Shown here one piece after another: positions 4,559 through 64,000 of a stretch of DNA of 64,000 nucleotides. Location: the NCBI GenBank assembly GCA_000004985.1, contig GG738853.1; one strand, given 5' to 3'. Source of the DNA: Naegleria gruberi (taxonomy: Eukaryota). The notes under the pieces are model-generated. The model made no database searches and was not told the DNA's origin. It saw nothing but the letters and a program-made list of their open reading frames with translations. Within the stretch, counting starts at the first letter, position 1. The number at the start of each line of letters is the position of its first letter. The position numbers and the translations under genes were made by a program.

Positions 4559-4631
4559 CTCCCCCTGGTGGGCTCGAACCACCGACCTGCAGATTAACAG
4601 TCTGACGCTCTACCGACTGAGCTAAGGGGGA
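4559..4631 (-). tRNA. tRNA-Asn (anticodon GUU)
   Basis: The reverse complement folds as a 73-nt cloverleaf. Acceptor stem TCCCCCT/AGGGGGA; D-arm GCTC-AGTCGGTA-GAGC; anticodon loop CTGTTAA, giving GTT; T-arm GGTGG-TTCGAGC-CCACC. The downstream flank has T-runs, as expected for a Pol III terminator. One mismatch at the outer pair of the anticodon stem. Confidence 0.8.
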
Positions 4632-4702: not shown

Positions 4703-4791
4703 CCAGTACAAAAGGCGACTGAGGGAATTGAACCCTCGACCCTCAGTTATCTCAGCATTTCTGCCTACAAGACTGATGCACTGCCACTGTG
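4703..4791 (-). tRNA. Intron-containing tRNA, most likely tRNA-Thr (anticodon UGU), with a ~17-nt intron after position 37
   Basis: The reverse complement gives acceptor GGCGGCT/AGTCGCC (one G-U pair); D-arm GCAC-AGTGGCA-GTGC; anticodon stem TCAGT...ACTGA, which pairs perfectly only if 17 nt (GGCAGAAATGCTGAGAT) are removed; loop CTTGTAA (anticodon TGT); T-arm GAGGG-TTCAATT-CCCTC. The isotype call depends on exactly where the intron is placed. Confidence 0.6.
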
Positions 4792-4873
4792 CTAAGCCGC
4801 CTTACACTTTATCATCAAATTTAAAATTTTCGAAAAACATGTGCAAGGACAAAGAATAATTCATTTGCAGAGT

Positions 4874-15943: not shown

Positions 15944-16016
15944 GCGGCAGTAGATCAGTGGTTAGATCGTCCGCCTCACACGCGGAAGGTCGCGGGTTCG
16001 AACCCCGTTTGCCGTA
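15944..16016 (+). tRNA. tRNA-Val (anticodon CAC)
   Basis: 73 nt. Acceptor GCGGCAG/TTGCCGT; D-arm GATC-AGTGGTTA-GATC; anticodon stem-loop TCCGC-CTCACAC-GCGGA; variable loop AGGTC; T-arm GCGGG-TTCGAAC-CCCGT. Close to the eukaryotic tRNA-Val-CAC consensus as I recall it. A T-run lies downstream. Confidence 0.8.
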
Positions 16017-16405: not shown

Positions 16406-16478
16406 TACGCAAGGCGGGGTTTGAACCCGCGACCTTCCGCGTGTGAGGCGGACGATCTAACCACTGATCTACTTGCGC
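16406..16478 (-). tRNA. tRNA-Val (anticodon CAC), inverted relative to the copy at 15944
   Basis: The reverse complement gives GCGCAAG-TA-GATCAGTGGTTAGATC-G-TCCGCCTCACACGCGGA-AGGTC-GCGGGTTCAAACCCCGC-CTTGCGT-A. It is identical to the first copy in the D and anticodon arms. It differs in acceptor pairs 4-69 and 5-68, where the changes are compensatory, and at one T-loop position. Confidence 0.8.
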
Positions 16479-18140: not shown

Positions 18141-18229
18141 GGGTGGTTAGCTCAGCGGTAGAGCACCGGATTGCAAAGATATTTGCAGCAGACATCCGAT
18201 GGTCACGTGTTCGATCCACGTACCACCCT
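18141..18229 (+). tRNA. Intron-containing tRNA-Cys (anticodon GCA)
   Basis: Acceptor GGGTGGT/ACCACCC; D-arm GCTC-AGCGGTA-GAGC; anticodon stem CCGGA, loop TTGCAA(A), anticodon GCA. A ~17-nt insertion (GATATTTGCAGCAGACA) sits before the 3' stem strand TCCGA. The intron contains TGC, complementary to the anticodon. T-arm ACGTG-TTCGATC-CACGT. A downstream T-run (TTTTGTTTTTT) follows. Confidence 0.65.
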
Positions 18230-50950: not shown

Positions 50951-52595
50951 CTGTATGTTTTTGTGTATTGAATGTTTTTCTTCTTAACGCTTTTTGATTC
51001 ATTTTTAATGTTTCATAAATGATAGACTTCTTAATTTAGAAATTCTTCTTTCCAATAAAAGTGCTTTCTGTAGATGGTGTTGGAGCCAAGATTAGATTTG
51101 AAGAGGTTGTTATTTCAGATAAAATCAATGAAGGAGAACACCTTGACATTCAGTTGGTAGAGGATATTTGCTTGACTTTTCAAAATGAGTGTCTCTTCAG
51201 TGAAATCAAGGACAAGATCAAAGACTATTTGAGTTCAGCTTTGAAAAAGAGAAGTCGAATTGAAGTTGAATAGTGTTTGTGACTTGTAAATTGGTGTGAT
51301 GAGTGTGATGTGACAATTCTAAAAATTGAATAAACCAAATTTGTGTGCTATGGTGTGTTAGCCATTTAGGAATTGAATTTTGGTGGTCTGTTGTTTTTCG
51401 GAATGAGGTAGTTGTTTTTCAAAAGTAGCCGCCCTCTATTCTTTTTTCGAAAAATCAACTCCCGAATTTAATAAAACTTAATAGTTAAATACAGGGTACA
51501 ATTTATGAAAAACACCAACCCTGTTGTTTAGCTGTGTGATTCTGATGAAATGTGGTTTTTTGCGGTTCAGGGGTAAATCCCGTCATTAGGGAAATATTTT
51601 TTAATTTTTATTATGTCGATGAAGGACAGAAGAAGCAATGTAAGAGATGAAGTCATGAAAGTGGATGGAGAGGTAGACGGTATGATAGAGTTGTGTTTAT
51701 TGTTGTTGTTGGGAGGAATGACAAAGCAGATGAAGAATAGCTATGGTTCGGATGACAGTGATAAAAATTACAAGTAACCTACCACTTCGATATTTGAAAC
51801 ATGGAAAGTGGTAAAACAATATTAAGCCACATGATGATTGTCAACCACTTGGTGTTGTTGGGTGGTACTCAACTTGTTGTTAGTGATCCCGAAAATATTA
51901 AAATTAATATTTTGATGAAAATTAAGTTTACTTGCATCTTCTCCAACTTTGTAAGTGGTTGAAGGCAGGTTTAATAACTTTCTGGCGTTATGTTAGTGAT
52001 GAATTAGAACAAGGCTATGGTGTTCTACTTGTTCTACATGTTGAGCATCATGATGAAATATTAACAATTTGATAGAAACAATCTTGAATTAAAACATTCG
52101 CACACATTACATTGTTAACCTATGGTTGATGTCAACAAGTAATACGTATTACTTTTAGTTCTTCAATTCATCAATTGTTTTTTGAAAATTAACACTTGCC
52201 TTCTAAAATCCGTAACTGTCAATAAATTTTCTCCAAAATAATTGTGTGTAGTTCCCATAGTCCTATCCTGTTGTACATTGAATGGTTTTTAATATGATGA
52301 AGAATTGTCGAAAACAATTAGATAAGAACATGTTGATGAAAAACTGGAGTATTTTTTTATTCAAAATTATTGAAAATAGGAAAATCCAGTCGTCACAGAA
52401 AAATATTTTGCTATTCGATCCACATCTAAAATCCACTGAAGACCGTTTGTAGAAAATATTTTTTTTCACCTGATAACAAAATATCGCCATTTCCGTACAA
52501 TTAGATGATTAAGGACTCTTCCCAACACAAATAAAGGTTTTCAGTGTCGCCTAATCTGGAGGTTTGCTTGTCCTAATAGAAACAGTCCTTAAAAA

Positions 52596-54805
52596 ATGTC
52601 CAATACGCAAACAGCTGCTGCTGTGGCGTTGCCTTCCAAGGCATCACACGCTACCAGTACTCTTACAAGTCCACAAACAACAATAGAATCTTCTTCAACA
52701 TCATCATCACAAAAACAAATCGGAGAAGAACACCATCACTTTAAAGAGGAATTATCATCAACCATGTTCAAACCACCTACATCACCTGCTAAAGGTACTT
52801 CCCATTTCACCCAAACTAGCACCACCACAAACCCTAAAAGTACCTCCTCCTCCGATGAATTTAATTTAGATGCCAGGTTGAGAGAGAGATGTAATAATAA
52901 TTTAGAAAAAGTAATGTTGTTCATTGTTGCCAATAGAATCAACGTGATGGTCGTCTTTTTAACTACCTATATTCTAGCAATACTGTATGGTCGATTACAT
53001 ATTTCATGGCAGGGAAATTTGCTTAATATAAGTGTAATGCTATTACAAATATTAATCAATAGGAAAAACATTAATTCTGCAATGTCGTATGGAGATTCTT
53101 TTGCCAGTAGTGACGGTTATGAAAAGGTGAGAATGATCTTGTCCTTTACAATATTCACTGTTAGGTTTTTCCTTCATCCAACTCACAAAATTATTTTCAT
53201 TCCTCTTACTTTTATGTGGTTTACTGGCTCGAATAATGTTTACTTGAAATCAACTTTTTGGGGATTGTTTCCAACTTATTATATGACTGCTCTGTTTGTT
53301 GGGAGTTTGGGATACTTTGGTGTGATTGAATTTATTAATAATGGATTTTCGCCCGAGTTGGTAAACATGTTAATTGAATACTTGGGAATTACTTGTTGTG
53401 TTTGGATATTTTCATATTATATGGTAAATGTGACTGGCTATCTAAAATATAAGGTGGATAAATTACAGGAAACTAGGCTGGCACTGGAACATGCCTTAGA
53501 GGCAAGAAGTCGTTTCATGGCCCACATTTCACACGAGTTCAGATGTCCTATCATGTCCAGTATTGGATGTTTAGAATTGTTGAAAGAAACACCACTGAAT
53601 GAAAAGCAGAATGACTTAGTCGATACCATTGTTTCATCAAATAGTGTCTTGTTACTTTTAATAGAAGATATTTTACAAATTGTAAAAATTGAGCATGAAA
53701 TTGCTGAGGTGCCAAATTCTCAAAATGTGAGAAGTTTTAATCTCTATGAGTCACTCTTATCAATGAGAGGAATAATTTCTGGATATGCATCAATTTTCAA
53801 AGTCAAGTTAACATTTCAACTTGACGAACAAATTAAGAATAAGCTTGTATTGTCAAACGCTTCAAAGCTTCATCAAATACTTTCGAATCTCCTCACAAAT
53901 GCAGTGAAAGCATCAAAACCGGATGGAGAGGTGGTATTGTCATGTCAAGTTATTAACAGAAAGGATGACAATCTATTAGTGAGATTTAACTGTATTGATC
54001 ATGGAAATGGTATTCCACCACACTTAATTGAATCAATATTTGAACCATTTGTTCAACTTCAAAATAACCTTCAATCAAAAGTACCAAGGTAAGTGAAAAC
54101 CATTTCAAATAATCATTTACTAACTCTCTCAGTTCTGGATTGGGTTTAACAACCGTTTCTCATCTTGTCAAATCTATGGAAGGAAGGATTGACGTCTTTT
54201 CTGAAGTTGGAAAGGGTAGTAATTTCGTAATTGATTTACCGTTTAAATTGTCAGATAATCAACTGATCAATGAAGTTGACTCAATTATGGAAGCAGAAAA
54301 TAAGAGAATTGAAATGCATCTCAATGTTCACCAAAATTATCTTTCCTTAATGTCAAATCTTGAACAACGAGAAAAGACAGTTGAAGAGTCTCAATTCAGT
54401 TCAGAGATTATTATTGCAGAGGATAATCCAATTAATAGAAAGGTTATTGTAAAAATGATTAATGGTCTAGGATACAAAACTGATTTCGTTGCAGATGGAG
54501 CTGAATTGGTTAAGAGTTTTAACCCTAAAACGCACAAAGTAGTAATAACAGATATGGTATGTAATTTCAAAGTTCAATAATTAATTTAATATTCTACGTA
54601 GAATATGCCAAATATGAATGGGTTGGAAGCTGCAAAAGAGCTACGACAAAAATATGGTTCAGACTTTAGTATTTATCTTCTTACAGGAAATGTAACTATT
54701 TCCTTATCAAAAATTGATGATATTGGTTTAATTGATGGTATTCTAACCAAGCCATGTTCTAAAAGAGATTTGGAAAAATATATTTCATTAAGGTGTACTA
54801 AATAA
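52596..54805 (+). CDS. Membrane-bound hybrid sensor histidine kinase (HisKA + HATPase_c + receiver)
   Basis: Exons 52596..54088, 54133..54556 and 54602..54805. The introns are GTAAGT...CTCAG (44 nt) and GTATGT...CGTAG (45 nt). Their phases restore the G2 box (KVPS|SGLGL) and the receiver motif (VITDM|NMPNMNGLEA). An S/T-rich N-terminus is followed by about 6 TM helices. H-box SRFMAHISHEFRCP; N-box LLTNAVKAS; G1 DHGNGI; receiver aspartate in IIIAEDNPINRKV...DM. Confidence 0.8.
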
Positions 54806-55010
54806 GTGGACGTAGAGGATTGGAATTAAAATATTTTTTACATGGAAGACAACTTTCACATTTAAGGAACCTAGCAATGTAATACTTATTTTTTAAGCAC
54901 AATTGCCACTGCTCCAATATTTATGGAAAAGAAAGGATCAGTATAACAGAAATGAACCATATTGACATTAATAATGATTGGTAATTCTACATTTATTTGA
55001 GAATCATTCA

Positions 55011-57515
55011 CTAATTTTCTAAAGCATTTATATTCTTAAAGGGTGGTGTAGTAGCCAATTTTGAAACATTTTGAAATAAAAATCCCTTGTAGTATGGCAA
55101 CAAGTTGCAAGGAAAGTACTCTTCACTTGCAACATCTTGATGACTTATTAAAATAACCTTGTCATAATGTTTGTGTTGTTCCAATTTCTTCATTTCTTCA
55201 TCATGTATTCTAGTTGTTGTAATCATGACGAAATATACTTCAACATTCTCGAACTCTTTGAGTGCAACATCTGAAAACTGATTCTTATCCAACCACTGTA
55301 CAATACTCAAATTAGATTCCAGTGAATAATTTTTGTAATGGATGAGGAATAGAGATTCTTTAGGTTTACAAATATTTAACCAAAAATGTGCATCAACGCA
55401 GGGATGCGTATCAGAAGTGTATGAATAAATTTCTGAGGGATTGTTCATACATTTGGAGCTGTCAATTTTAACAATATTATTCTCTTTGTCTTTAGAAATG
55501 AACGTGACATGAGATACAATCTTGTACTCATTTTCATCCAATTCAAATAACTTGTTAGAATCATCACCAGTCTTACAGGATGGAAACAATTCCTTAATAG
55601 TGATAAGAGGTTTTGTGAGTTGTCTAAGAATTCCAATCCTATAACAAATACATTTCAAATCAATTCTCTCAAAATCTCTGGGATGAATTTCTTGTTCTTT
55701 TAGTATCTTACTTGAAATGTAAGGATCTTTCTTGACTAGTTGTCTAAAGTATCGTGGTGCTATATACAGGCGACCTGTTGGAGTTTTATAAATCAATCCT
55801 TTCAAGAAGAGATCCTTTTCTTCTCTTGTCAGTGAAACATTCAATCCACACAATAAACGTGGTAATAATTCGGATTGAACTGATGGGTCGTTGAATGATT
55901 CTTGCTTAACAAGATACCCTTTAATTACTTTATCGATATTCTTTTTCAATTCTGGAAATAGAACATCAGACTGATTTTTCCATTCTTGAAATGTCACCTT
56001 TGTTAAAAAGGACGCAATTCCTCTCAAAGTAAGGTTCAACACTTCAGGTATTATTAAGGCCTCAAATAGCAAAACTCCCATTCTTCGTATAGTTACATTG
56101 TTGGTAATGCTCATCATATTAATCATTGTAGTTGAACATTTAAAATAACTATTACTTAAATATTCCTTTAAAATTGTACCCAATTGTGATGGGCAAAGAG
56201 GTGGTAATGTTAATTCTTGATATCCAAACTCTGTTTCATCAAATCGTAGATCAGAGATGTGGTCAAGACCTGATAGAATTGGAATCAAACAAACTCTACT
56301 TAAATTTAAATTGACAGTGTCAGTGTTCACCATATAATATCCAATGGCGTATAAAGGACGTTGCCATGGAGTAAGTGTTGAATCATCCTTAATAGTTCCA
56401 AACATTTGGTATAGGAATTGAACCTCATCCAGAGAAATGGTCATGAGTAAAATTTCATCGTTGTTAATAAATTGTTCCAATTTTCTTGTAATGTTTTGTA
56501 ATGTGAAGAAATTGGTGGTATAATAAAGAGTTTTAAAGTAAGGATTTAGCAATTCCACTAAATAACTGACTGGACACCCCATTAATCTTGCTAAAATTCG
56601 TAATCCAAACATTTTCCCTTCAGTTTCTTGTTTGGAATAACCGTTAATCTCATCACTTGTTAAGGTGTTTCCAGTGTCTAAGGAAAGATTACAATGTAAT
56701 TTTCTATATTTATGTTCAGAATCCATGTTCATTGTAAGAACAATGTTTCGAATTTCCTTACAAGCTCTTGACTTTCCACTACCTGTACCATTGGATAGAA
56801 TTCCATACTTAAAATATCCTTTTCTTTCAATTGGTTTCGTTTTGTTTGTATGAAAAATGTTCAAATCATGTCGCACTAATTCTTCCACATCATGGGCAAA
56901 TGTCTCTCGATTATAAAATCCTTGAATTGTTCCTTCCTCAGGAGTGTAGGATTTATCGACATTATTAAGGAAACATTCTTTCAAGTTAACCTTAACAAGA
57001 GATTCGAACCAATCAAATGGAGAATCATCAAATTCTTTCGGGAGTTTTAAACTGTCTGAAACAATGTTTGTCTTCAATGTTTCCATCTCAATTAACCAAT
57101 TAGCAATTGTTCGGGCAATATCTTTTGATGGAATTTTATCATCTTCCATCAAATCTTCAACCATTAATCGTTTGGCTTCTTCTGGTGTTTTCTTGGATTC
57201 GATGGCTGTTTTATATTGTTCAATAGCCAAGATTAAATGACTTCCACAAAGAGCATTCAATGGAATTTTATCATTTACTTTTTCCTTCTTCAAAACATCA
57301 ATTTCATCTTGGTCGAGTGATAACAAAAGATCTTCACTAACAAGTTTCAATACTTCCGAATGTGATAAATGCTTAAATGAATTATAATAATTTGGTTTTG
57401 CTCTTTTTGAAGAAGAGTTATCATCAAATAAGGAATATTTATATTTTCTTTTTAATTCTTCGGTTGGTTCTGCTTCTAGTTGTGGTGGTGAAGTGATGGT
57501 AGGTGGATGGTACAT
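55011..57515 (-). CDS. Large (834 aa) single-exon protein with a Walker A P-loop (GTGSGKS). Function unknown.
   Basis: ATG at 57515 (MYHPPTITSPPQ). GILSNGTGSGKSRACKEIRNIV lies about 235 aa from the N-terminus. No clear Walker B motif or other signature found by eye. It is convergent with the histidine kinase gene. It is the last long ORF before the gene-poor terminal region. Confidence 0.5.
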   Translation of the reverse strand: MYHPPTITSPPQLEAEPTEELKRKYKYSLFDDNSSSKRAKPNYYNSFKHLSHSEVLKLVSEDLLLSLDQDEIDVLKKEKVNDKIPLNALCGSHLILAIEQYKTAIESKKTPEEAKRLMVEDLMEDDKIPSKDIARTIANWLIEMETLKTNIVSDSLKLPKEFDDSPFDWFESLVKVNLKECFLNNVDKSYTPEEGTIQGFYNRETFAHDVEELVRHDLNIFHTNKTKPIERKGYFKYGILSNGTGSGKSRACKEIRNIVLTMNMDSEHKYRKLHCNLSLDTGNTLTSDEINGYSKQETEGKMFGLRILARLMGCPVSYLVELLNPYFKTLYYTTNFFTLQNITRKLEQFINNDEILLMTISLDEVQFLYQMFGTIKDDSTLTPWQRPLYAIGYYMVNTDTVNLNLSRVCLIPILSGLDHISDLRFDETEFGYQELTLPPLCPSQLGTILKEYLSNSYFKCSTTMINMMSITNNVTIRRMGVLLFEALIIPEVLNLTLRGIASFLTKVTFQEWKNQSDVLFPELKKNIDKVIKGYLVKQESFNDPSVQSELLPRLLCGLNVSLTREEKDLFLKGLIYKTPTGRLYIAPRYFRQLVKKDPYISSKILKEQEIHPRDFERIDLKCICYRIGILRQLTKPLITIKELFPSCKTGDDSNKLFELDENEYKIVSHVTFISKDKENNIVKIDSSKCMNNPSEIYSYTSDTHPCVDAHFWLNICKPKESLFLIHYKNYSLESNLSIVQWLDKNQFSDVALKEFENVEVYFVMITTTRIHDEEMKKLEQHKHYDKVILISHQDVASEEYFPCNLLPYYKGFLFQNVSKLATTPPFKNINALEN

Positions 57516-59697
57516 TTTTTTTGATTTATATAAACAAAAAGTAATAAGGCAATTAAATTCGAATAAAATTCATCCAATACTATGCCTCTGTGGGAATGAT
57601 GAATTACTTGTAGAAGAGAAAATTGGTTGTTGGCATTATTCACTTTGGCAATCACTGACTTCTGGAAATCTAAATATTTTTAACTAAGGTTGTACACGTT
57701 TTTCTTAAAGACATTATCTGGAAAATTAATTTAAGGCAATTATATTCGCAATTTAGGCGAGAGATTATTCACATCATTATTTTCAGTTTTGACAGATTTT
57801 CTAATTTGTGCACCAGAAGAAGAACCAGCAGTCTTAGGTTGGAATACCAATATACCTATTTAGCAGGGTGATGAAATCAATGAAATGGTTAGACACTGTG
57901 TTGATAAATGTGTTGAAGAACCAAAAGGAGACAAGTTAGATGATGTTGAAAAGGCTTGCACAATATGCGTGTTACGGAACGATTCCAAGCTGGTATTTTG
58001 GTGACTTTAGTAATGGTTGGCGTGGAAGGAAGCAAAGGGAGAACTCTCCTCATGGAATGGACCTTCATTAAAATTGGAATGCTTCATTAAGATCTGTCCT
58101 TTCCAAAAGTACTTTTTCTTCTGCTTCTTGACGAAGCCTCTGTAATCAAAACAGTTACTATCAATAACAATAGAACTCGATAAATTCCAATTTATTCCTT
58201 TCAGAATGTACTGCCTCTCATCGATAAAGACGTTGTTTTTCAACAAACTAATCGAAAGGTTGTGGACTAACAATTTGGATATAAGAGCGTGGAGGACACC
58301 TAACAGGACCGTGACCTTCGACACCCAAACGAACATGAGCACCATGTTTTGTGTATTCTTGTGTGGTCTGGTCAACGAAATAGACTGTAGCATTCACGGT
58401 ACGCAAAACTGGAGGATTTGAGTGAATTGTTTGCACTATTTCAATACAGCTTCCATTGTCGAAAAAAGTGTGTGCATATTCCCCACTAATTCTGTAGGGT
58501 TTGGTTAGGATTCAGAGTTGATTTATTTGGGTTATTTAAGAGATTACTTAGTGAAGATTCATATCATTGATTATATTTCTTATCATCTATTAATGATGTA
58601 AATTTGATTGTTTCATTTCTTGTATTGATAGATATTTAAAGGTCAGGTCAGAACTAACTTTTGTATTATGGACTTTGAGAAGTCAAATGTTTGGGACGTG
58701 AATATACTCATTGGGTTTGGATCCCATGTCAACCCCTATTTATTAAGCTTTTCTCCTTAAATACATTAACAATATATATCACAAATGATGTCAAAAGATG
58801 GTGATTGTAATGGGGCACAATATTCGGCTGATGTGAAATTGTTAAATATTTATATATATCAAGTTATGATGGTGGCTAGTGGCAATAAAATCACTTGATC
58901 AAAATTATTTTTGCCGCTTGATCAAACCGAAAAACGCGCGGAAAAGTTAAAAATAGATTCAAGTTGATGTGAAAATGGCTCAGAATCGAAAGGATTAACA
59001 AAGCTTACTACTATATTGGAAGTGAATGTGCCATTTGGCACTCACTTCCATCAACTTTATCATAGAAATCACTCTTGAAACATGAATTGTACTATAATGT
59101 GTGAGTAACATACTGGTGTTGGAATTGATCAATAACTCTTTGAAATGATTGAGATGGAATGTAAACTATATTCTAAGGTATATTGGTTGACTGTAAGATA
59201 CAGAGCCATCAATGTGAAACTTTGTCAGATTGTTCTCCTTATCAAGAGGAGTGTATTCATATTTGATACTTGTATGATATTTTGTAAAATGAATGAGATG
59301 GAGTATATTCTATATGTTGAAATCTGACAATTTGACAGATTGATATTATTATCATACTGAATTCAATTCTAAAACATTAAAATTGATTCCAGATGTATAT
59401 CAGTGTGATTAAATGTATCTGGTAAAGTTACATGACGGTTGGATGTACTTTCGCTGAGATAGAGTGTACACTTGGATATAATCACTATTGACATTGAACA
59501 TTTACTGATTGACTGAATGTAAGTTTTATGAATTGTTTCAAAACGTATATAGATGTATATAAATGATGTATAGAATGTGTGTAATCAATTCTAGACTAGT
59601 TTCATATAAAATAAGTGATTTGGAGCATAATCCTTGATTTTATGTCAAAGTTCTATAGTAAAATGATAGAGTGACAACTCAATATCTAATGAGCCAA

Positions 59698-59747
59698 NNN
59701 NNNNNNNNNNNNNNNNNNNNNNNNNNNNNNNNNNNNNNNNNNNNNNN
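59698..59747. other. Assembly gap (50 N)
   Basis: Run of N characters. Confidence 1.
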
Positions 59748-60391
59748 AGTCAACATTTACATTCCCATGGTACCATTTCTGATTACTAGGACATGAAATT
59801 AAATTCTATATCATTATAGATCATCTACATTATGATGGTAAAGTTTCAATAGGTGGTCCTTTTTCCAGATTTCCACATATTCATACAAGTTCATACAAGT
59901 TGACCCTATGATGGTTGAGGGAAGAAATCTTTAAATATGAAAGTTAAAATAAATTTGATATTCGATGTTTACTCATCAAATGGAACATTTTCATGTCAGG
60001 ATTCAATATGTTTTCATGAGAAACTCAAAAGTTATTGTTGACCTATTGTACCTCACAACTTCCCTTTTCACTTGATACTTTTATACCTACAGACATGAAC
60101 TTTTGAAATTTTATATGAAAGTGATTATGAATGTTGTTAATGATGATATAGACTATATAATCTCATTAAAGGATTTTGAAACTATCATCCTTCCTATGGT
60201 TTCATTTTACAATTTTTAATCTGACATTATTTACAAGGTTGATATTTTATAAATTGAAAAACTAAATATACCACATTGTTCTACTCATCATTTACAATCG
60301 AATGATATAAAATTTAATGATATTTGAATAAGTTTATATATTTGGGCTAGGGTTTGAACGTTGGGTTTAGAAGAATTCTATTTTTAGAATT

Positions 60392-60808
60392 GGGTTTGGG
60401 TTTGGGTTTGGGTTTGGGTTTGGGTTTGGGTTTGGGTTTGGGTTTGGGTTTGGGTTTGGGTTTGGGTTTGGGTTTGGGTTTGGGTTTGGGTTTGGGTTTG
60501 GGTTTGGGTTTGGGTTTGGGTTTGGGTTTGGGTTTGGGTTTGGGTTTGGGTTTGGGTTTGGGTTTGGGTTTGGGTTTGGGTTTGGGTTTGGGTTTGGGTT
60601 TGGGTTTGGGTTTGGGTTTGGGTTTGGGTTTGGGTTTGGGTTTGGGTTTGGGTTTGGGTTTGGGTTTGGGTTTGGGTTTGGGTTTGGGTTTGGGTTTGGG
60701 TTTGGGTTTGGGTTTGGGTTTGGGTTTGGGTTTGGGTTTGGGTTTGGGTTTGGGTTTGGGTTTGGGTTTGGGTTTGGGTTTGGGTTTGGGTTTGGGTTTG
60801 GGTTTGGG
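60392..60808 (+). repeat. (GGGTTT)n telomere-like hexamer array, about 70 units. It is preceded by degenerate variants and truncated by a 50-N gap at 60809-60858.
   Basis: Perfect 6-nt periodicity can be read directly. The lead-in at 60340-60391 carries degenerate copies (GGGCTAGGGTTTGAACGTTGGGTTTAG...). Confidence 0.95.
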
Positions 60809-60984
60809 NNNNNNNNNNNNNNNNNNNNNNNNNNNNNNNNNNNNNNNNNNNNNNNNNNTCTCATTGATACATGTCTAATTATCATGTTTTATGATATATA
60901 ATTGAAATAATTGAAATTTATCATATATATAGGGAGATAACCAATTAGGATGAGAGAAGGGGAAGTTACGCTCACAATTTACCA

Positions 60985-62986
60985 NNNNNNNNNNNNNNNN
61001 NNNNNNNNNNNNNNNNNNNNNNNNNNNNNNNNNNNNNNNNNNNNNNNNNNNNNNNNNNNNNNNNNNNNNNNNNNNNNNNNNNNNNNNNNNNNNNNNNNNN
61101 NNNNNNNNNNNNNNNNNNNNNNNNNNNNNNNNNNNNNNNNNNNNNNNNNNNNNNNNNNNNNNNNNNNNNNNNNNNNNNNNNNNNNNNNNNNNNNNNNNNN
61201 NNNNNNNNNNNNNNNNNNNNNNNNNNNNNNNNNNNNNNNNNNNNNNNNNNNNNNNNNNNNNNNNNNNNNNNNNNNNNNNNNNNNNNNNNNNNNNNNNNNN
61301 NNNNNNNNNNNNNNNNNNNNNNNNNNNNNNNNNNNNNNNNNNNNNNNNNNNNNNNNNNNNNNNNNNNNNNNNNNNNNNNNNNNNNNNNNNNNNNNNNNNN
61401 NNNNNNNNNNNNNNNNNNNNNNNNNNNNNNNNNNNNNNNNNNNNNNNNNNNNNNNNNNNNNNNNNNNNNNNNNNNNNNNNNNNNNNNNNNNNNNNNNNNN
61501 NNNNNNNNNNNNNNNNNNNNNNNNNNNNNNNNNNNNNNNNNNNNNNNNNNNNNNNNNNNNNNNNNNNNNNNNNNNNNNNNNNNNNNNNNNNNNNNNNNNN
61601 NNNNNNNNNNNNNNNNNNNNNNNNNNNNNNNNNNNNNNNNNNNNNNNNNNNNNNNNNNNNNNNNNNNNNNNNNNNNNNNNNNNNNNNNNNNNNNNNNNNN
61701 NNNNNNNNNNNNNNNNNNNNNNNNNNNNNNNNNNNNNNNNNNNNNNNNNNNNNNNNNNNNNNNNNNNNNNNNNNNNNNNNNNNNNNNNNNNNNNNNNNNN
61801 NNNNNNNNNNNNNNNNNNNNNNNNNNNNNNNNNNNNNNNNNNNNNNNNNNNNNNNNNNNNNNNNNNNNNNNNNNNNNNNNNNNNNNNNNNNNNNNNNNNN
61901 NNNNNNNNNNNNNNNNNNNNNNNNNNNNNNNNNNNNNNNNNNNNNNNNNNNNNNNNNNNNNNNNNNNNNNNNNNNNNNNNNNNNNNNNNNNNNNNNNNNN
62001 NNNNNNNNNNNNNNNNNNNNNNNNNNNNNNNNNNNNNNNNNNNNNNNNNNNNNNNNNNNNNNNNNNNNNNNNNNNNNNNNNNNNNNNNNNNNNNNNNNNN
62101 NNNNNNNNNNNNNNNNNNNNNNNNNNNNNNNNNNNNNNNNNNNNNNNNNNNNNNNNNNNNNNNNNNNNNNNNNNNNNNNNNNNNNNNNNNNNNNNNNNNN
62201 NNNNNNNNNNNNNNNNNNNNNNNNNNNNNNNNNNNNNNNNNNNNNNNNNNNNNNNNNNNNNNNNNNNNNNNNNNNNNNNNNNNNNNNNNNNNNNNNNNNN
62301 NNNNNNNNNNNNNNNNNNNNNNNNNNNNNNNNNNNNNNNNNNNNNNNNNNNNNNNNNNNNNNNNNNNNNNNNNNNNNNNNNNNNNNNNNNNNNNNNNNNN
62401 NNNNNNNNNNNNNNNNNNNNNNNNNNNNNNNNNNNNNNNNNNNNNNNNNNNNNNNNNNNNNNNNNNNNNNNNNNNNNNNNNNNNNNNNNNNNNNNNNNNN
62501 NNNNNNNNNNNNNNNNNNNNNNNNNNNNNNNNNNNNNNNNNNNNNNNNNNNNNNNNNNNNNNNNNNNNNNNNNNNNNNNNNNNNNNNNNNNNNNNNNNNN
62601 NNNNNNNNNNNNNNNNNNNNNNNNNNNNNNNNNNNNNNNNNNNNNNNNNNNNNNNNNNNNNNNNNNNNNNNNNNNNNNNNNNNNNNNNNNNNNNNNNNNN
62701 NNNNNNNNNNNNNNNNNNNNNNNNNNNNNNNNNNNNNNNNNNNNNNNNNNNNNNNNNNNNNNNNNNNNNNNNNNNNNNNNNNNNNNNNNNNNNNNNNNNN
62801 NNNNNNNNNNNNNNNNNNNNNNNNNNNNNNNNNNNNNNNNNNNNNNNNNNNNNNNNNNNNNNNNNNNNNNNNNNNNNNNNNNNNNNNNNNNNNNNNNNNN
62901 NNNNNNNNNNNNNNNNNNNNNNNNNNNNNNNNNNNNNNNNNNNNNNNNNNNNNNNNNNNNNNNNNNNNNNNNNNNNNNNNNNNNNN
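60985..62986. other. Assembly gap (2002 N)
   Basis: Run of N characters. The six-frame ORFs crossing it are artefacts. Confidence 1.
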
Positions 62987-63572
62987 CTGACATGTTGAAT
63001 GATTTCAAATTGTCATGAAACTGATACAGTGGTGTTTATTCACCATTAGTAAGGTACTGTATCAATTTCATAATGATCTGTATAGTAGATGTCATTGTCA
63101 CATCCCTGTAGGTATCAAGTGCATCAGCCATGTACCATGTATGATATGGATGAATGTCAAAGTGATATTAATGTATTTAATTATCATGTACAGATGTATT
63201 GGAAGTGCATTGAAGTGGAACAGAATTCTCTCTTCAATGTTAGAATAGGTCAGTTGACAAGTTGAATAGTTAATTTCCTGAAATGATACCAAAGTATTTG
63301 AAATTGATATATATTGTTATTAACATGATATATAAGGTGATATATTGATTTGAATTGAATTTGAAATGTTTTCATTGATATTCTAATTGTCTAATCTATT
63401 ATATGAAATTAACTTATATAAATCATTATAATGATGTAATATTATGTTATATTGTGATTATATATTCAATTTGGAGTATATTGATATATAATATATTGAT
63501 TTATAATGAGTATTTATTGAGATAATCAATTAAGATGAATAAAAGTCAAAATATTGGGTCTGGCTTTGGCGT

Positions 63573-64000
63573 GGGTTTGGGTTTGGGTTTGGGTTTGGGT
63601 TTGGGTTTGGGTTTGGGTTTGGGTTTGGGTTTGGGTTTGGGTTTGGGTTTGGGTTTGGGTTTGGGTTTGGGTTTGGGTTTGGGTTTGGGTTTGGGTTTGG
63701 GTTTGGGTTTGGGTTTGGGTTTGGGTTTGGGTTTGGGTTTGGGTTTGGGTTTGGGTTTGGGTTTGGGTTTGGGTTTGGGTTTGGGTTTGGGTTTGGGTTT
63801 GGGTTTGGGTTTGGGTTTGGGTTTGGGTTTGGGTTTGGGTTTGGGTTTGGGTTTGGGTTTGGGTTTGGGTTTGGGTTTGGGTTTGGGTTTGGGTTTGGGT
63901 TTGGGTTTGGGTTTGGGTTTGGGTTTGGGTTTGGGTTTGGGTTTGGGTTTGGGTTTGGGTTTGGGTTTGGGTTTGGGTTTGGGTTTGGGTTTGGGTTTGA
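63573..64000 (+). repeat. (GGGTTT)n telomere-like array, about 71 units, running to the window end with the G-rich strand 5'->3' toward the terminus
   Basis: Perfect hexamer repeat from 63573 to the last base. A degenerate lead-in GGGTCTGGCTTTGGCGTGGGTTT lies at 63556-63572. The repeat has the same orientation as the block at 60392. Confidence 0.9.

Follow-up and report, generated by a model that had tools for sequence, protein, structure and literature searches.

Two outward-facing TTTGGG arrays at a Naegleria gruberi scaffold end: probable telomere tracts that draft scaffolding may have placed in series

The right end of a 64,000-nt stretch of Naegleria gruberi DNA (contig GG738853.1, assembly GCA_000004985.1), referred to below as the window, carries two perfect (GGGTTT)n arrays, which we call arrays 1 and 2. 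All three gaps of the 64-kb window are confined to the same last 4.3 kb. They are runs of N at 59698-59747 (50 nt), 60809-60858 (50 nt), and 60985-62986 (2002 nt), just as an earlier note on this DNA had described them, and they split the window end into four pieces, contigs A, B, C, and D. Open reading frames (ORFs) in the window are identical to the proteins EFC47923 and EFC47796 of N. gruberi strain NEG-M, both of which are encoded on a 695,587-bp scaffold. These exact matches indicate that the window derives from the Sanger draft of strain NEG-M by the Joint Genome Institute (JGI), and it would represent the terminal part of that 695.6-kb scaffold. The features of this part are as follows, with positions counted from the first letter of the window and GC standing for guanine plus cytosine content.

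Up to 59697: contig A, large and gene-bearing, 5' of both arrays
55011-57515, minus strand: last long gene before the end, encoding an 834-aa protein (EFC47923 / XP_002680667, exact match)
57516-59697: non-coding distal tail of contig A, with no ORF of at least 150 aa, GC 32.7%, and repeats at chance level only
59698-59747: scaffold gap 1, 50 N
59748-60808: contig B, 1061 bp, ending in array 1
59748-60341, plus strand: unique AT-rich subtelomeric part of contig B, GC 26.7%, without similarity to contigs C and D or the rest of the window
60342-60391, plus strand: junction 1, TTTGGG-CTA-GGGTTT-GAACGT-TGGGTTT followed by a 23-nt non-telomeric spacer
60392-60808, plus strand: array 1, perfect (GGGTTT)69 and GGG, truncated by gap 2
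60809-60858: scaffold gap 2, 50 N
60859-60984: contig C, a 126-bp AT-rich fragment with a non-telomeric start, GC 27.8%
60985-62986: scaffold gap 3, 2002 N, a size probably estimated from mate pairs
62987-64000: contig D, 1014 bp, ending in array 2
62987-63553, plus strand: unique AT-rich subtelomeric part of contig D, GC 25.4%, without similarity to contig B or the rest of the window
63554-63572, plus strand: junction 2, three degenerate units (TGGGTC TGGCTT TGGCGT) abutting array 2
63573-64000, plus strand: array 2, perfect (GGGTTT)71 and then GA, at the window end and probably the scaffold end

Array 1 is composed of 69 units at 60392-60805 with no variant among them, followed by GGG up to 60808, and array 2 is composed of 71 perfect units at 63573-63998. 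The earlier note had given about 70 and about 71 perfect units; the count for array 2 is correct, while that for array 1 is one unit too high. Tandem Repeats Finder reports array 1 at 60390-60808 (69.8 copies, 100% matches) and array 2 at 63554-63999 (74.5 copies, 97% matches), the lower match rate of array 2 being due to the degenerate lead-in counted in with it. A probe of three units (an 18-mer with up to two mismatches) gives 136 matches, all on the plus strand and all within the two arrays, with a shuffle expectation of 0.00. The window holds no further copy of the repeat outside the arrays, nor would chance predict one; the sequence CCCAAACCC has 0 occurrences in the window. The G-rich strand is on the plus strand in both arrays and runs 5' to 3' toward the window end, so that the same orientation ascribed to them earlier is confirmed by 136 of 136 probe matches. 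Both arrays have a short G/T-rich tandem unit of the TnAmGo type. The statement that the window terminates in an array is true of array 2 up to 63998, but a GA follows it off register. The last base of the window (64000) is A, and the window ends ...GGGTTTGA with the register of the repeat broken. The final A of this GA (63999-64000) could be a read-end error, a remnant of a cloning site, or a variant unit.

The starts of the arrays should be noted, since degenerate variants had been described as leading into each of them. This holds in full only for array 2, which is directly adjoined by three degenerate units (63555-63572). Before array 1, three telomere-like units stand isolated at 60342-60368; 23 nt of non-telomeric sequence (AGAAGAATTCTATTTTTAGAATT) come next, after which the array starts abruptly. 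On its distal side, array 1 runs into 50 N, and contigs C and D both begin without repeats, so that the window contains no junction from an array to unique sequence on the distal side. An interstitial telomeric block has contiguous non-telomeric DNA on both sides; array 1 has it on the proximal flank only. Interstitial blocks are typically, though not by strict definition, short and/or degenerate, whereas array 1 extends over 417 bp with 100% matches, like array 2. Array 1 ends in a gap, and only 2 nt separate the end of array 2 from the window end. An array of 446 bp is very unlikely to end within 2 nt of the window boundary by chance, suggesting that the scaffold itself ends there.

Contigs B and D are each made up of about 0.6 kb of unique sequence and about 0.42-0.45 kb of repeat. 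The AT-rich unit of contig D had been placed at 62987-63555 with a length of about 0.7 kb; it is in fact 567 bp long (62987-63553). Comparison of the unique parts of contigs B, C, and D with each other and with contig A by blastn (word size 7) gives chance-level matches only, the best of which has an E value of 5e-4 over 64 nt of AT-rich sequence, and a repeat search of the window returns only short chance repeats. The unique parts of contigs B, C, and D are thus unrelated, and no repeated subtelomeric module is present within the window. Two candidate explanations were rejected on the lack of mutual similarity, namely a repeated subtelomeric unit (contigs B, C, D, and A) and contigs B and D as alleles of the same sequence. 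No Pfam family scores above the cut-off in the ORFs of the small contigs, and a 28-mer from junction 2 scanned against metagenome contigs gives 0 matches.

Repeats of the TnAmGo type are known as TTGGGG in Tetrahymena, a mixture of TTGGGG and TTTGGG in Paramecium, TTTAGGG in Arabidopsis, and TTAGGG in trypanosomatids, the last being the other Discoba with characterised telomeres. The window arrays resemble these telomeres in their short, G-rich, perfect head-to-tail unit, in the outward G strand, and, for array 2, in the degenerate proximal units. They differ in that the unit is a pure G3T3 hexamer.

The repeat was also found in a second organism. Metagenome contigs were scanned for (GGGTTT)8, giving at least 120 loci. 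Among the matches listed, 81 arrays lie internally, and of the terminal ones 42 have the G strand outward and 10 inward. In the same list, one metagenome-derived contig set with the accession prefix JAESGV01 accounts for 21 loci (L003, L011, L012, L018, L023, L037-L040, L049, L056, L058, L062, L068, L078, L083, L086, L087, L091, L099, and L106), and in all 21 the array is at the true contig end with the G strand outward, with none inward. Under random orientation, the probability of 21 outward arrays in 21 is about 5e-7. A SET1-type protein encoded on one JAESGV01 contig finds its best named relative in Acrasis kona (49% identity, E value of 3e-227), and two JAESGV01 contigs encode intronless PPR-DYW proteins, which outside land plants we take to be known mainly from heteroloboseans. 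We assign JAESGV01 to a heterolobosean because of the Acrasis kona match and the PPR-DYW genes. TTTGGG appears to cap chromosome ends in this second heterolobosean lineage.

The junctions in JAESGV01 are mostly abrupt. Related subtelomeric sequences, 76-91% identical to each other, are capped there at staggered points, in the order L049 < L038 < L058 with offsets of 664 and 417 bp. This staggered capping suggests nested terminal truncations that were healed by telomere addition. Chromosome healing, in which a truncation is followed by de novo telomere addition, resembles both these staggered abrupt junctions and the abrupt start of array 1. No untruncated homologous copy of the contig B sequence is present within the window, so that healing is to be regarded at this locus as a possibility.

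TTTGGG has been named as an unexpected candidate telomere repeat of N. gruberi, from this very assembly, in a survey of 143 genome assemblies for terminal and correctly oriented TnAmGo repeats, the main text of which calls for experimental confirmation (Fulneckova et al. 2013, Genome Biol Evol 5:468, PMC3622300). What the repeat is, and its interpretation as telomeric, have therefore been in print before, at the level of an in-silico candidate. The window agrees with the candidate as presented in that text in organism, assembly, and repeat unit, and also in the criterion applied, namely arrays at the end whose G strand points outward; it is one scaffold end that a survey of this kind would have scored. 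The main text of PMC3622300 contains neither a locus-level description nor double arrays or junctions, and both of the latter are seen in this window. Apart from the 2013 survey, we found no publications on telomeres or TERT of Naegleria; telomeres are not mentioned in Liechti 2019 (N. fowleri Nanopore) or Dereeper 2023 (Naegleria pangenome), and our literature search found no report of Bal31, terminal restriction fragment, or telomerase assays for Naegleria. A Nanopore/Flye assembly of N. gruberi exists (Romero Charria et al. 2025, PMC12695648).

The right window end is supported as a chromosome end, as the earlier note had proposed: the repeat is the published N. gruberi candidate, its G strand points outward, and 21 of 21 arrays in the heterolobosean relative are terminal and outward. 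Both arrays are best taken as genuine telomere tracts of the published TTTGGG type. The repeat type, perfection, and orientation suggest that the tracts were made by telomerase, and the outward G strand would fit the addition of repeats by this putative enzyme to the chromosome 3' end. By analogy with characterised TnAmGo telomeres, the TTTGGG tracts would bind capping proteins and offset end-replication loss.

As to the occurrence of two arrays, we lean somewhat toward the reading that alternative ends were stacked by mate-pair scaffolding and that the layout is not that of one continuous molecule. Contigs B and D are each about one Sanger read long. Contigs of this kind would be expected from clone-end reads that start inside the telomere and read inward, with their mates in contig A. 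A scaffolder has to put all linked contigs on one line, and alternative ends would then appear one after another, in this case about 1.1 and about 4.3 kb past contig A. The alternative ends could belong to the two homologues of a heterozygous diploid, or one of them could be a paralogous end with cross-linking mates. N. gruberi is reported to be heterozygous and diploid in work citing Fritz-Laylin 2010.

Several features of the window end are consistent with stacked ends. The confinement of the gaps to the last 4.3 kb would fit thin, one-directional read coverage at a physical end. Array 1 is no less perfect than array 2; in an internal block this would be unusual, and it speaks for stacking. 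Judging from the contig sizes, the nearly equal counts of about 70 units are probably an effect of read length; counts set by read length are lower bounds on tract length only and say little about telomere structure. The chromosome end, the genuine tracts, and the stacked ends taken together form the best explanation of the locus, in which we have moderate confidence.

Some points weigh against this explanation. The stacking is argued from contig sizes and missing junctions, and the order given by the scaffolder, contig B followed by contigs C and D with the 2002-nt gap, amounts, if read literally, to a single molecule that carries an internal array. The evidence that TTTGGG is terminal in Naegleria comes from an in-silico survey (PMC3622300). 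Moreover, just one hint points to a second copy of the terminal region, and it is weak. It is the 344-aa protein EFC35388 (P0002), encoded on a separate 2118-bp N. gruberi scaffold and 97% identical to residues 358-695 of the 834-aa ORF. The two differ by 9 substitutions confined to 58 aa, most of which change a first codon position to A; the next 250 residues are identical. We down-weighted this protein as a second haplotype copy, since the differences resemble the tail of a low-quality read; judged by its sequence, it looks like an unmerged low-quality read and not a true second copy.

If the scaffold is instead taken literally, the window end would be a modular subtelomere, in which contig C, the gap, and contig D form a distal element of about 2.7 kb between an interstitial (TTTGGG)n tract of at least 70 units and the true terminal telomere. 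Such an arrangement would be like X - TG(1-3) - Y' of yeast, or would have arisen from a healed break with later end transfer by recombination. The scaffold order and the estimated 2002-nt gap do set contig D distal to contig B, the two arrays have the same orientation that such modules require, and the failure to assemble about 2 kb would be accounted for if the distal element were repeated. The likeness to yeast lies in two same-orientation tracts separated by a few kb of subtelomeric DNA. In yeast the internal tracts measure only tens to about 130 bp, and Y' is present in many copies. The inner tract of the window differs in being at least 417 bp long and perfect, with continuity broken by three gaps, and a multi-copy, Y'-like distal element was looked for without result, contigs C and D matching nothing within the window. 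The interstitial block offered as an option in the earlier note is further opposed by the missing junction from repeat to unique sequence, since contigs C and D start with non-telomeric sequence, and by the lack of degeneracy in the inner array, which has 0 variants in 69 units. Internal telomeric blocks usually decay. The inner array would also have to exceed the bridging length of Sanger reads, the unit before array 2 is unlike the unit before array 1, and inward arrays, expected for the distal side of such a tract, make up 0 of the 21 contig-end arrays listed in JAESGV01. We therefore regard a modular subtelomere as unlikely. A real layout in the wider sense is doubtful but deserves a little more weight; it would comprise either a long, perfect internal tract, beyond which lie a distal element of about 2.7 kb that can be transferred and then a second telomere, or homologues capped de novo about 1.1 and about 4.3 kb beyond shared sequence.

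A mis-join would likewise place two ends on one line, with contig D, and perhaps contig C, coming from another chromosome through chimeric clones or links between telomere repeats. All ends share identical telomere repeats, through which false links can arise, and contig D has no sequence relation to contigs A or B; on the other hand, scaffolders normally mask high-copy repeats and require several concordant links. A mis-join is improbable in our view, and it overlaps with the stacked ends favoured above, as both take the two arrays as separate true termini. Least credible of all is one long telomere interrupted by subtelomeric units, an option also listed in the earlier note, or a non-telomeric TTTGGG satellite. 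The alternation of repeat, unit, and repeat gives a visual impression of this kind, but the units before and between the arrays are unrelated to each other. The repeat is moreover absent elsewhere in 60 kb, is present on one strand only, and lies at the sequence end; it is terminal and outward both in the published survey (PMC3622300) and at the 21 of 21 listed JAESGV01 ends.

The sequence proximal to the arrays is ordinary for the window, which has long uninterrupted ORFs under the standard code and a GC content of 34%. The approximately 6 kb before array 1 had been called gene-poor and very AT-rich, neither of which is borne out. The annotated gene for the 834-aa protein lies in this part and ends 2.9 kb before array 1, and the GC content is 32-33%, compared with 31% for non-ORF sequence elsewhere in the window, where ORFs have 35%. 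A higher AT content is confined to the unique parts of the small contigs (GC 25-28%).

The 834-aa protein has no Pfam family. A word-index protein search gives no match for it, while exhaustive phmmer gives a 97%-identical cluster representative and 23 relatives. All of these 24 phmmer relatives are in Naegleria or environmental contigs, and the protein belongs to a small family found only there. The last gene was also considered as a member of a subtelomeric family. This was rejected, as the homologue loci examined are not beside TTTGGG arrays: none is present at four loci (L121, L125, L126, and L127) or at the locus of a fragment homologue (L122). The N. lovaniensis counterpart is located 59 kb from the start of a 716-kb contig with non-syntenic neighbours, so that this comparison, made with an ancestral chromosome end in mind, showed no conserved synteny to an end; it is annotated as two adjacent genes, C9374_001841 and C9374_001842 (L121 9301-11335). 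The fragment homologue at L122, of 118 aa, adjoins a PiggyBac-type transposase gene.

At 52596-54580 on the plus strand, the window encodes a hybrid histidine kinase with HisKA, HATPase_c, and receiver domains. Its ATPase domain extends over two ORFs about 47 nt apart, a split that is probably due to a short intron. N. gruberi has several paralogues of it at 57-58% identity, while those of N. fowleri, N. lovaniensis, and Willaertia magna are more distant; the relatives examined are paralogues that lie internally or on a small contig lacking repeats. The region of the histidine kinase and the 834-aa gene (window 52408-56315) is 98.75% identical over 3.9 kb to the environmental contig k127_262086 of ENA ERZ929261 (L124), which indicates a very close relative of N. 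gruberi NEG-M in that environmental sample. The copy of the 834-aa protein on that contig lacks residues 421-423. Rfam applied to the whole window identifies only five tRNA genes, distant from the telomeric end and in two loose groups, at 4559-4631, 4713-4801, 15944-16016, 16406-16478, and 18141-18229. Two of them are 89 nt long, probably because of an intron or a long variable arm.

The window provides a clean locus-level example of the proposed TTTGGG telomere of N. gruberi, in which both subtelomere-telomere junctions can be read. Since the telomere is already known in kind and organism, the locus has little consequence beyond bookkeeping. It does advise caution, in that where an old mate-pair scaffold ends in "double telomeres", these should not be taken as internal telomeric blocks; the inner array is more likely a product of draft scaffold construction than of biology. 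A modest additional result is that TTTGGG also caps contig ends in an Acrasis-like heterolobosean. This suggests that TTTGGG is common across Heterolobosea and not peculiar to Naegleria, unlike the TTAGGG of trypanosomatids. Should the two ends prove allelic, this locus would offer a way to follow the dynamics of chromosome ends in an organism for which ploidy and sexuality are under debate. If the layout is real in either of its forms, it would, together with the staggered capping in JAESGV01, suggest that frequent terminal breakage and healing, or end-to-end recombination, are normal at heterolobosean chromosome ends.

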